Of a stretch of DNA of 64,000 bases, positions 5,102 to 59,779 are shown one piece after another (position 1 is the stretch's first letter; each line of letters starts with the position of its first letter). The stretch lies in assembly GCA_951406725.2 (NCBI GenBank), contig OX597830.1, forward strand, positions 11,780,001 to 11,844,000. The letters run 5' to 3'. Under the pieces are notes generated by a model, which was given only the letters and a program-made list of their open reading frames with translations, did not search any database and was not told the origin of the DNA. The stretch is from Octopus vulgaris (taxonomy: Eukaryota). The position numbers and the translations under genes are program-made.

Positions 5102-6356
5102 CACAGAAATACAGGAAGTAAATAGACACCTTTAATTTTCAAAATCTTTTATCTAATATGCAAAATGAACAATTGAAATGTAATCGATAGGTAGGACTAC
5201 ATACTTTAGTATTTAGTTGACACTCCCTTTGCAGTTTTTAATTCAGAAACTATTTTTGGCGTTGAAATGGTGAGCTTTGTGATTGTCTATTGTGGAATTT
5301 CTGCCCAATTTTCACGCAACAATCGAAACAATTCATCTTTAGATCTAGGTTTCTGCCGAATTTTTCATATAGCTCTATCTAATATGCTCCAAAGAATTTC
5401 AGTTGGGTTCATGTCAGGAGATTGCCTCGACCAAAGAAGCTTTTTGATCCCATTTTCAGTCAGCCATTGTTGATTCCTTTTCGCTGTGTGGCACGGAGTC
5501 CCATTTTCCACGAATAAAAATTCACTTTTCGTTATGTTATAGCGTGAATACATCGGAAGTTGTCCTTGCTTAAATATTTCGATGTATTTTTCAGAGTTTA
5601 TGGTTCCAACACATTCGATCAGCTCAAAACAACCATTGCTGGTGACAGCTCCTCAAAGCATTACAGAGATACCGCCATGTTTCACAGTTAGTTGGAGTCG
5701 TTTCAAATCAAATTCTTGATTGGGAAGCCTCCAGACACAAACACGTTCACTGTCTGAAAATTCATCTGAGAAAATCACTCTATCCCAAAATGAACTGGAT
5801 TTTTCTGACATCTCCTTAGCCCATTTCTTTATTTTCATGATATTAATAGGAGAGGTTTTCTTTTTGCTGCTCATCCATAATACCCAAGCTTATGCAGATA
5901 TGCAGCACACGTTCTTGGACTAACTTCTAGCTGCTTTGCAATGTCAGAAGCCTTCGAACGGGGTTCATTTTCCATAATTCTCTTCAAACAGCGAAGCTTC
6001 CTTTCCGAGGGCCCATGTCGGCCGGGATGAGAATCTATTGATTCTTTTCCTTGGTTTTTGAATTGCACTATAATTCTATTAACAACAGCAAGAGGAATTT
6101 GAAGATTTTCAGCAATTTTTGACTGGCTAAGACCAGCCTCAAATTGCCCAACAATACCACCTCTTTGAAAACCTGACAGTTCTGCTGAATTTTTTGTGTG
6201 TGACATGGTTACTCTTCGCAAATGTTTAATATAATGGCAACTGAAATGAAAAAGAATAATTACACTGTAAATTCTACACCGCTGAAAACATATTAAGACA
6301 CTTAGGTCAGAAATTTTGAAAATTAAAGGTGTCTATTTACTTTCTGCATGTCTGTG
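5102..6356 (-). mobile_element. Full-length decayed Tc1 (DD34E) DNA transposon
   Basis: ~44-bp TIRs CACAGAAATACAGGAAGTAAATAGACACCTTTAATTTTCAAAAT, TA-flanked, enclosing a transposase pseudogene. Confidence 0.93.
5200..6206 (-). pseudogene. Tc1 transposase, frameshifted
   Basis: HTH (ELSGFQRGGIVG...LSQSKIA), [22 protein letters not shown] (second catalytic D mutated to N) and SPDMNPTEILW with 34-aa spacing. Confidence 0.92.
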
Positions 6357-7648: not shown

Positions 7649-8207
7649 ATGCCAAATATGCCGAAAATAGACAAATCGTCAATAACCATATAATTTATCA
7701 TTATAAGCACGCGTCTCGAACTAAGCCGAGAGAAATTTCCAAAAATTTCCGTTATTATTGTATCGGTCCCAATTTCAGAGATAATTCATAAGAATTTTCT
7801 CCTCGTCAGCGATAAATACGGTAAGAAATAAATGAAATACTTACTTATACCCATGGAAGAAGCAAACACTAAGTCATGTGCACACTTCAGTACCCCAAAT
7901 ATATTCAAAATAGAAATTCTCCAGCACACCTCAAGACACGTGTGATCGGACTGAAAACTCTCACAGAGTGATAGAGTCCGGAAGTGAACACTATTAAATT
8001 TACATTTAATATAGGATAACATTTTTTGAAAAAAAATTCTATCAATGGCCAGCATATTAAAAAATACCTTTAAAGGTTAAATTTATAAACAACTTATAAA
8101 CAAGAGCAAAAGAAAAAAATTCTAATGCCAAATATGCCGAAAATAGACAAATCGTCAATAACCATATAATTTATCACTATAAGCACACATCTCGAACTAA
8201 GCCGACA
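7649..8207 (-). repeat. Hammerhead-bearing repeat (same family as the 28205-28756 fold-back) plus a partial second copy at 8125-8207
   Basis: TGCCAAATATGCCGAAA... shared with 28205. Confidence 0.85.
7761..7814 (-). ncRNA. Hammerhead ribozyme-like motif (cleavage triplet mutated to GAC)
   Basis: UAUCG CUGACGA GGAGAAAAUUC UUAU GAAUUAUCUCU GAAA UUGG GAC CGAUA; perfect 5-bp stem I. Confidence 0.7.
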
Positions 8208-8229
8208 GTCTGTTCGTAAAATGCAGACA

Positions 8230-15043: not shown

Positions 15044-15461
15044 TTACTCTTTTTTTTTACTTGTTTCAGTTATTTTGACTGCGGCCATGCTGGAGCACCG
15101 CCTTTAGTCGAGTAAATCGACCCCGGAACTTATTCTTTGTAAGCCCAGTACTTATTCTATCGGTCTCTTTTTGCCGAACCGCTAAGTGACGGGGACATAA
15201 ACACACCAGCATCGGTTGTCAAGCAATGCTAGGGAGACAAACACAGACACACAAACACACATATACATATATATATATATATATATATACATATATACGA
15301 CAGGCTTCTTTCAGTTTCCGTCTACCAAATCCACTCACAAGGCATTGGTCGGCCCGGGGCTATAGCAGAAGACACTTGCCTAAGGTGCCACGCAGTGGGA
15401 CTGAACCCGGAACCATGTGGTTGGTTAGCAAGCTACTTACCACACAGCCACTCCTGCGCCT
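15044..15461 (-). mobile_element. SINE family A
   Basis: Full-length reverse copy. Confidence 0.92.
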
Positions 15462-15656
15462 ATTTATTTACTAATCTAAAATAATGAAGAAACTCGCGAT
15501 CTTCAGCTCGTCGTTCCGCCGAAAAGGTAACAACGGAAAAGAGAAGGGTCTATTAAATAAGGTTTGGATGCAAAACCAACAATTTTTATGGGCCTTTAAA
15601 AATCCACGAGAGCAAAACAATAAGGGACGCATGTAGAGTATCAACCTTAATGTGGA

Positions 15657-15817
15657 GGCGCAGGAGTGGCTGTGGGGTAAGTAGCTTGCTTACCAACCAC
15701 ATGGTTCCGGGTTCAGTCCTACTGCGTGGCACCTTGGGCAGTCTTCTACTATAGCCTCGGGCCGACCAAAGCCTTGTGAGTGGATTTGGTAGACGGAAAC
15801 TGAAAGAAGCCCGTCGC

Positions 15818-15865
<48 letters not shown>

Positions 15866-16075
15866 ATATGTTTGTGTGTCTGTGTTTGTCCCCCTAGCAT
15901 TGCTTGACAACCAATGCTGCTGTGTTTATGTCCCCGTCACTTAGCAGTTCGGCTAAAGAGACCGATAGAATAAGTATTGGGCTTACAAAGAATAAGTCCC
16001 GGGGTCGAGTTGCTCGATTAAAGGCGGTGCTCCAGCATGGCCGCAGTGAAAATGACTGAAACAAGTAAAAAAAAA
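15657..16075 (+). mobile_element. SINE family A
   Basis: Full-length copy, head-to-head with 15044-15461. Confidence 0.92.
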
Positions 16076-16099
16076 AAGAAAAGAGAAAAAGAAATACCA

Positions 16100-34682: not shown

Positions 34683-35523
34683 TAATAATAATAATAACAG
34701 CAACAATGGAAGTGTAAATAATAATAGTAAAAATACTAACATTAATGATCACAATAGTATAAGCAGTAATAACATTATTGGGATCAACAGAAGCCACAGA
34801 GCTAGTTATATATTAACTGTCAACCCCAATACCATAAACCCTACACAGCCACACAGAACATGTGATTGTAGAATAAATAATAATTGTGTATTTAATAATA
34901 ACTGAATTAGAAAGGAGGTAGTATATGAATGTATAGTAAGTACACAATATGACAGCAAGGTATATGTGGGTACGACAAAAACAATATGAAACAAAGACTT
35001 AATTATCATAACTATACATTTAGAAACAGAAATAGTAGGAATTCTACAAGGTTAAGTAGCTATATATGGGAACTTAAGTATGGGAGAATTAACTATAATT
35101 TAAATTGGAAAATATTAACAACAGCACCTGCGTATAATACTAAAAATGGTAAATGTATATTATGTATTAATGAAATTTTCTTTATAATTTGGACTAAATT
35201 TCCACTTTTAAACAGCTTTAATGAACGCAACGATCCTGTGTACATAAAATTGGGGCATACCATTTCCAAATACCACTAGAACCTAGTATTAAAATACCCT
35301 ACTCACATAATAATAATTATTATTATTCGACTTATTATTTTTGTTATACTGTATTATATAATATGTGACAATTATGCAGGTATATATATAAAAGAAGGTA
35401 TATATTGAGTTAGCTATAATTATATACATGTATGTATGTGTAAGTATATAATACTATTGTTGCTACTTTTGTATTAATATATGTGTGGATATGTGTGTAT
35501 ATATGTATCTATGTGCACGCACT

Positions 35524-39858: not shown

Positions 39859-40780
<922 letters not shown>

Positions 40781-50638: not shown

Positions 50639-50676
50639 TCTTTCTGTTGAAGAGCGTAGGCTCGAAACGTTAAAGA
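50639..50676 (+). ncRNA. Minimal hammerhead-like motif within unit 50560-50775
   Basis: UCUUU CUGUUGA A GAGC GUAG GCUC GAAAC GUU AAAGA; loopless palindromic stem III; A6U. Confidence 0.7.
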
Positions 50677-50773
50677 CTTGTTTTATTTATATTTCCTGAG
50701 CGCCATACTAATACAATTGTTCGTTTGTTTTCCACCTGCCTTCGTCTTTTGTTTATTTTCATAAAGCTTCCCG

Positions 50774-51658: not shown

Positions 51659-51754
51659 ATATATAATATATATGTATGTATATATGTATACTTTGATACT
51701 TTGATAGGTTTCGGCCATTATTGGCCCAGGCCATGTCTAACTTAATAGCACCAC

Positions 51755-51869
<115 letters not shown>

Positions 51870-51947
51870 AATAAAAAGTTTTGAATGGTAAAACAATGCA
51901 CTATAATACAAACAATAGACTATATATTTGTTGTAATTTAATCGTCC

Positions 51948-52054
51948 ATAGTCTGATATGATATTTCGGAATAAAATTCCTTCTTCAGATATTCTTAGAT
52001 GGCTAAGAATATCTGAAGAAGGAATTTTATTCCGAAATATCATATCAGATTATA
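51948..52054. ncRNA. ~107-bp palindrome made of two divergent hammerheads (51951-51993 -, 52008-52051 +)
   Basis: AAUAU CUGAAGA A GGAAU UUU AUUCC GAAA UA UCA U AUC AGAUU; 4-nt spacer ATGG. Confidence 0.8.
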
Positions 52055-52274
52055 TATATATATTTGTTGTGTTAAAAAATGGTTATCACAATTGTACTAA
52101 AATACAGTTATACAGTCTTTGATAATGATAAGAATATGTTAAAAAAATAGAATCTTTGACAATGATAAGAAAATGTTAAGTGGGGTTTTTGTTTAAACAG
52201 TTTACATGAAAGTGTTCAAAATAGGTAGTAAAATAAATTTATATATATCTAATGAAGGATAAAATTTATAATTT

Positions 52275-54740: not shown

Positions 54741-54818
54741 CCATTACACGCAAAAAAACGACACGTCAAAACACACACACACACAAAATATTTTGTCCTA
54801 TGCCGGCCTTAAAGCTTT

Positions 54819-54960
54819 GGATCTTTTCGGTTTGAAAACCCTAACTAACCCTAACCCTAAAAGAGATTGAAATGCAATAGATCGATTCTAGGGTCATAAT
54901 TATGGGTGACAATTCATATGACACCGCTAGAAAAAACTGCCGTTCAAACCGAAAAGGTCC
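54819..54960. mobile_element. Short copy of the 8-bp-TSD MITE with CCCTAA repeats
   Basis: TSD AAAGCTTT at 54811-54818 and 54961-54968; TIR GGATCTTTTCGGTTTGAA. Confidence 0.9.
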
Positions 54961-55034
54961 AAAGCTTTTATTAATGCAAGCTCTTTGTGGTTAATAAAGA
55001 AATCATCATCATCAGCATCATCATTATTATTAAG

Positions 55035-59505: not shown

Positions 59506-59779
59506 GTGTAAACATATTCGCACAATACATAGATATAAACCTCCTGCGTTCACAACGTCTACATACGTACACGCTCACCCAAACATGTATACGTACATGC
59601 ACATACACACACACATAAACATACATATATGCGTATCTACGTACATGTACATATATGTTTGTGTGTGTGTGTATGTGCATGTACGTATACATGTTTGTGT
59701 GAGTGTGTACATATGTTGACGTTGTGAACGTAGGCAGTTTATGTCTATGCATTGTGAGAATATGTTTGCGTGTTTTATC

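Follow-up and report, generated by a model that had tools for sequence, protein, structure and literature searches.

Minimal hammerhead ribozymes (min-HHRs) lie in the pseudo-LTRs of metazoan Penelope-like elements (PLEs), and their consensus combines CUGANGA and an extra base (H) with G10.1-C11.1, GAAA, a palindromic 15.2-16.2 and a short helix I (Cervera and de la Pena 2014, PMC4209133, Fig. S3; here and below, citations refer to parts of the papers concerned). In the parts of that paper cited here, a single min-HHR gave no detectable cleavage in vitro and dimers and trimers had low activity only. Dual min-HHRs on opposite strands, about 100-700 bp apart, are reported there, as is a 5'-truncated element with a second, opposite-strand min-HHR. 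The hammerhead of the Anolis Poseidon element PAc cleaved only after addition of the element's protein, and uncut RNA was the main insertion substrate (Frangieh et al. 2024, PMC11167929). An adjacent inverted 5'-truncated copy, a one-sided tail of 30-40 bp and a bias towards microsatellites are general features of PLE insertions (Craig et al. 2021, PMC8557442). Palindromes at head-to-head Penelope junctions have been read as products of self-priming (PMC3846280), and the formation of PLE inverted ends is named as still needing in vitro study (PMC8557442).

The octopus palindrome described here is very probably an unusually short example of this published kind, the inverted 5' end of a truncated PLE insertion. 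It lies in a 64-kb window, the whole stretch of DNA that was analysed. We have high confidence that it is the inert scar left by the insertion of a Penelope-like retrotransposon, with two head-to-head min-HHRs. Most likely the locus is plain genome debris and does not work as a switch. Our literature search found no paper on this octopus repeat family; most subscription papers and Repbase-type collections were outside its reach. The word "octopus" has no occurrence in one supplement file of PMC4209133.

Anatomy of the palindrome and its hammerhead motifs

The two arms (51948-51998 and 52003-52053) are reverse-complementary with one mismatch in 51, G51951 against T52050, which is a G·U pair in plus-strand RNA. 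They are separated by the 4-nt spacer ATGG (51999-52002), which is repeat-family sequence and forms the last bases ahead of the turn-round. The near-perfect hairpin with a 4-nt spacer described in the first-pass annotation is therefore real, although we count 106 bp in total and not 107, and the strictly perfect part is 47 + 4 + 47 = 98 bp (51952-51998 and 52003-52049). The inverted copy at 52003-52049 on the plus strand is identical to 51952-51998 at 47/47 positions and runs to 52053 with the one mismatch. The outermost arm bases merge into the AT-rich flank. The plus-strand hairpin has a predicted fold of -76.7 kcal/mol, and the 203-nt stretch around it gave z = -14.0, with 0/200 shuffles as good. 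All microRNA and snoRNA matches in Rfam were below gathering. The miRNA profile mir-4662 reached 49.1 bits against a gathering score of 97 and scored equally on the two strands, which is expected of any palindrome.

Judged by its bases, each arm is a minimal hammerhead as in metazoan PLEs, and the consensus fits at every point. The motif in its native place lies on the minus strand at 51956-51992 (core start 51988, C17 at 51960, 4-bp stem I, 5-bp stem II, no stem III). The second lies inside the fold-back on the plus strand at 52009-52045 (core 52013-52019, extra A at 52020, stem II 52021-52033, GAAA 52034-52037, C17 at 52041). In each arm, CUGAAGA (51988-51982 on the minus strand) is followed by a single additional A, then by a stem II of 5 bp capped by a UUU loop, GAAA and AUC; the two cores are 24 nt apart. 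With a strict motif descriptor, these two motifs were the only matches in the 64-kb window, and 30 block-shuffled windows averaged 0.0.

Both cores had been called intact, which holds for the conserved boxes and fails for stem III. Only 2 nt lie between A15.1 and U16.1 in each arm, so stem III is impossible within one molecule (0 bp as a monomer). An alternative register using the second AUC, 5 nt on, was rejected; there stem III would have 3 bp, but stem I just 1 contiguous bp. No register tested combines stem III with stem I in one arm. The cleavage-site register reads A-U-A-U followed by C, with a self-complementary 15.1-16.1 and a UH site. Stem I, with its 4 contiguous bp, has a predicted probability of only 0.001 in the isolated arm. 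When two same-sense arms were cofolded, an alternative dimer was predicted at -11.9 kcal/mol; the dimer joined by an intermolecular helix III, with stems II formed but stem I missing, reached -6.2 kcal/mol.

A canonical monomeric hammerhead of the Rfam families was ruled out: the three helices are not formed in one motif and there was no Rfam match. With a single arm, none of the eight matches listed up to E 10 was a hammerhead, and with the whole window there was no hammerhead among the 150 of 196 matches listed; the Rfam hammerhead models describe canonical motifs. We infer that neither min-HHR should cleave. Each lacks stem III, would need a same-sense partner and probably the element's protein as well, and would be locked in the hairpin in a read-through RNA. 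As the first-pass annotation proposed, a read-through transcript of either strand would meet the antisense arm first, and the motif would be buried: the predicted pair probability of G10.1-C11.1 in stem II is 0.80 in the isolated arm and 3e-15 in the full hairpin.

The motifs share with the PLE min-HHRs in pseudo-LTRs (PMC4209133) the conserved boxes, the extra base, the UH site, a 4-bp helix I and the lack of a helix III, and their U-A-U-C ending is also listed there for a coelacanth family. Unlike the opposite-strand pairs of that paper, which are about 100-700 bp apart, the cores here are separated by 24 nt; helix II here has 5 bp. The locus also resembles PAc (PMC11167929) in its uncut-hammerhead RNA template (the cDNA here crosses C17), its AT-rich target and the lack of reads starting or ending at the cut site. 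PAc was studied in vitro as a full element, and the formation of inverted ends is outside the tests in the parts of that paper cited here.

Retrozymes were considered as another class of hammerhead repeat. They are head-to-tail tandem repeats whose canonical motifs permit same-sense dimers, unlike the two motifs here, which are inverted and minimal. Animal non-LTR retrozymes are like the locus in being small non-coding repeats with type I hammerheads (PMC7229834). That assignment was ruled out because there is no tandem array at the locus, only two inverted motifs.

Repeat family, flanks and the inverted arm

Contigs of three DNA runs (X1, X3 and X6, with organism codes A, B and D) were aligned to 51868-52250 at 85% likeness, as were reads of one RNA run, X23. 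Run X1 is possibly the source sample, and X6 shares its species label (organism D) with RNA run X23. The minus-strand repeat at 51868-52002 is the 135-bp, 5'-truncated end of a very abundant family, and it holds both the left arm and the spacer. The palindrome had been described as only two back-to-back hammerheads; the left arm is instead the inner part of this repeat fragment. Summed contig depth over 51868-52002 in X1 was 3e4-2.3e5, versus 30-52 for single contigs, which gives no copy number but makes it clear that the family has very many copies. Dispersed, high-copy, hammerhead-bearing end fragments were found in all three DNA runs. We infer a PLE pseudo-LTR as the origin of the family.

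Beyond 52002, other copies of the family carry on into a different sequence that they have in common (30, 29 and 17 contigs in X1, X3 and X6 and 83 reads in X23, among the 24 of 497 loose ends listed). The left arm and spacer are therefore ordinary family sequence, and the right arm is an inverted copy added at the point where the element breaks off. What had been seen as an antisense arm is nothing but the element where it normally lies, and the second arm corresponds to the inverted copy that is well described for truncated 5' ends. The proposed search for other copies and inversion breakpoints gave, besides the abundance of the family and the break at 52002, at least two X6 contigs at single-contig depth with opposite-strand joints within the family, at 51912/52002 and 51931/51999 (2 among the 15 joints listed; 15 more exist). 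When the arm and its two flanks were compared by Blast with the 64-kb window, no further family copy appeared, and an exact 29-nt core pattern had no matches in viral, prokaryote-genome and metagenome contigs. These searches tied no ORF with RT and GIY-YIG domains to the family, which counts against its PLE origin. A MITE or foldback DNA transposon was ruled out, since other copies are non-palindromic past 52002 and, on the left, the inverted part stops short of the fragment's end.

On the left, the repeat is flanked by an (AT)54 microsatellite at 51758-51866 (54.5 copies, 100% matches), likely the target site at the element's 3' end, given the (TA)n bias of PLEs (PMC8557442). On the right is a short (TA)n run at 52050-52062, followed outside the palindrome by a piece of a different, less abundant repeat (52063-52243; summed depth up to 1.9e4 in X1); each of the three DNA runs has loose ends on both sides of this piece, before 52063 and behind 52243. 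An exact 14-nt direct match, 51921-51934 with 52057-52070, flanks the palindrome (E = 0.045) and allows an outer 15-bp helix. It covers 51927-51928, two bases at which this copy differs from the family majority. The match may mark a second template jump, or chance.

The locus is like the PLE ends in PMC3846280 and PMC8557442 in its 5' truncation, its adjacent head-to-head inverted copy (the family continues past 52002 and the fold-back starts at 52003), its junction palindrome, its one longer side and its AT-rich microsatellite flanks, (AT)54 on the left and short (TA)n on the right. Unlike the ends in those papers, as cited, it is without an ORF and has no discernible target-site duplication (TSD), and the whole unit is less than 190 bp. 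Any TSD would be hidden in the flanking (TA)n. The one-sided extension is 81-84 nt, versus the published tail of 30-40 bp (PMC8557442), a point against the preferred reading; it shrinks to about 44 nt on the left when 52056-52070 is taken to be the end of the arm, set off by a deletion.

In the order of steps that we favour, the element's reverse transcriptase would start at a nick in the (TA)n run and copy about 135 nt of the element's end, passing through the uncut minimal hammerhead. Copying would stop at 52002, 14 nt upstream of the core. The new DNA end would then snap back over the 4-nt loop and copy about 47-51 nt, and the folded-back end would be joined to the other (TA)n end. An alternative after Arkhipova, self-priming on an antisense template, would give the same product, indistinguishable here. 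Directly behind the spacer stands a C, in place of the A of the family consensus (agreement 0.57-0.77), so there would be no ready microhomology for priming from the consensus, and priming would have needed an untemplated base or a variant parent.

Alternative origins and possible roles

One point against a fold-back formed at insertion is that the arms are too alike. They show 0/47 differences, whereas the adjoining part (51868-51947) differs from the family majority at at least 5/80 sites, private to this insertion (other base in 94-99% of depth; 40 of 122 differences listed). If all five listed differences postdate the insertion, the probability of identical arms is p = 0.002; with the divergence between the arms of the 28-kb palindrome (28199-28756, described below) as the yardstick, it is p = 0.10. 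This would suit a history in which the same PLE stump gained its inverted arm later at the DNA level, through a template switch in replication or repair, or had its arms kept identical by arm-to-arm correction. The 14-nt match includes the insertion's own bases 51927-51928, which hints at a local template jump, but its last 8 nt are also the start of the neighbouring repeat. The five differences may stem from the parent copy, and the contrast of 0/47 with 5/80 gives a Fisher p of 0.16. Moreover, two other hammerhead families in the window show the head-to-head geometry, as do further copies of the family studied here, and a PLE-specific process explains all of them at once. We regard a later origin or correction of the arm as improbable.

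Perfect arms over 47 bp might also point to a fold-back chimera, an assembly or library artefact in a repeat-rich region, and such structures are known to trouble short-read assemblies (PMC8557442). No piece spans the junction among the 24 of 4221 listed from X1, X3 and X6, and no read listed does so, but with 24 of 4221 pieces listed this gap in coverage proves nothing. Depth at 52005 was 323, 76 and 60 in the three runs, though depth is not diagnostic. Arm divergence shows the neighbouring palindromes of like build to be genomic. The break just upstream of a hammerhead core is also shared with the palindrome at 30378-30634. An artefact is very improbable in our judgement.

The first-pass annotation raised a self-silencing switch and a dsRNA of about 50 bp for Dicer or ADAR. 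The arm lengths bear out the dsRNA in a read-through transcript, which would be very stable by prediction, with identical arms. A selected regulatory element nevertheless seems hardly credible, whether as a ribozyme switch that masks itself or as a hairpin maintained as a substrate of ADAR or Dicer and acting on the family's many copies. Predicted folding gives no active monomer to switch: these are min-HHRs without stem III, a single motif of this type stayed uncut when tested (PMC4209133), the Anolis hammerhead needs a protein (PMC11167929), and there is therefore probably nothing to switch off. A central bidirectional promoter was ruled out, as only 24 nt lie between the cores.

RNA run X23, read raw and to about 6 in 100 of the run, comes from the related organism D, which may lack the insertion. 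In total, 411 reads aligned, about as many in one direction as in the other; a fraction of 0.8 continue into sequence unlike the locus, and 9 cover 52005. There were 0 reads over 52050-52062 and no pile-up of read starts or ends, so use by Dicer or ADAR, while possible, finds no support at the locus. The aligned reads come from other copies of the family. The suggested check for A-to-I editing gave 37 A>G or T>C places versus 16 G>A or C>T in X23, compared with 12 versus 13 in DNA run X6. This excess is not significant (Fisher p = 0.08), and it concerns the family and not the locus; differences between paralogues can mimic editing. In a rotifer, antisense small RNAs against Penelope copies have been described (PMC3846280).

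A bolder extension of the preferred reading, the insertion scar of a PLE, seems doubtful to us. It would have the turn-round set by the ribozyme end of the template, and octopus genomes would hold thousands of near-zero-spacer stumps that map reverse transcriptase stops and self-priming; such stumps, if transcribed, would supply perfect 50-bp dsRNA, through which ADAR or small-RNA pathways would act on the family as a whole. In two of the three window palindromes, the turn-round point lies 14-16 nt upstream of the hammerhead core, and in the third it lies at about 110 nt.

The palindrome alone matters little, since decayed insertions like it are numerous. Taken together, very short head-to-head stumps preserve a record of the way in which PLEs form inverted ends, and a genome-wide catalogue of stump junctions in octopus could test self-priming models cheaply. 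The animal group to which the octopus belongs is known for heavy A-to-I editing, and such a catalogue would also list ready-made dsRNA substrates in it.

Related sequences elsewhere in the window

Five further regions with short-spacer inverted repeats turned up when the 64-kb window was scanned for them. Two of these have head-to-head hammerhead-like cores and, like the palindrome studied here, are longer on the left side only. The larger, of about 560 bp (28199-28756; cores at 28362 on the minus strand and 28597 on the plus strand), belongs to a second hammerhead family and has diverged arms. Its junction is short and self-complementary, its left side alone is extended, by about 35 nt, and further partial direct copies of this family lie at 7649-7930 and 8090-8208. 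The other (30378-30634) has a 1-nt spacer, two deletions in one arm and a core in which G3 and C8 are exchanged: GUGAACA on the minus arm, with one further change on the plus arm. It has a 7-bp stem I and a palindromic helix III region, and both of its arms look decayed. A C3G/G8C double change gives partial restoration of activity (PMC11167929).

No hammerhead core was found in our scans of the remaining three regions (15377-15740, 54811-54968 and 59510-59767), the first of which is a pair of SINE-like copies. At 50644-50680 on the plus strand, upstream of a (TA)n run, lies a solitary min-HHR-like motif whose first box carries one change.

Coding remnants that recall PLEs also occur in the window, unlinked to the 51868-52002 repeat. 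A decayed reverse transcriptase at 16094-16570 has 52% identity to an Octopus sinensis RVT_1 protein. It is part of a plus-strand stretch (15533-17680) in which the reverse transcriptase is followed by what we take, from motifs read by eye, to be GIY-YIG-like sequence, interrupted by a SINE-like repeat. Two further frames, at 34953-35279 on the plus strand and 39859-40182 on the minus strand, presumably resemble the C-terminal part of PLE GIY-YIG endonucleases. The homologue search with the former returned 0/30 candidates; the latter has 376 unnamed relatives, and 2/7 of those scanned gave weak GIY-YIG hits below the Pfam cut-off. Pfam matched 1/11 window frames, the one at 5871-6332 on the minus strand, whose paired helix-turn-helix hits (5874-6332) make it like the N-terminus of Tc1/mariner transposases. 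A PDB sequence search with P0001 gave 0 matches.

Two faint hammerhead-like traces were also seen. Near 17635, a degenerate hammerhead-like stretch, recognised by eye, lies about 70 nt past the apparent end of the ORF. To the left of (AT)54, at 51690-51740 on the minus strand, a short GC-rich stem is followed by GAAA, with no recognisable first box, and is possibly a decayed hammerhead remnant.
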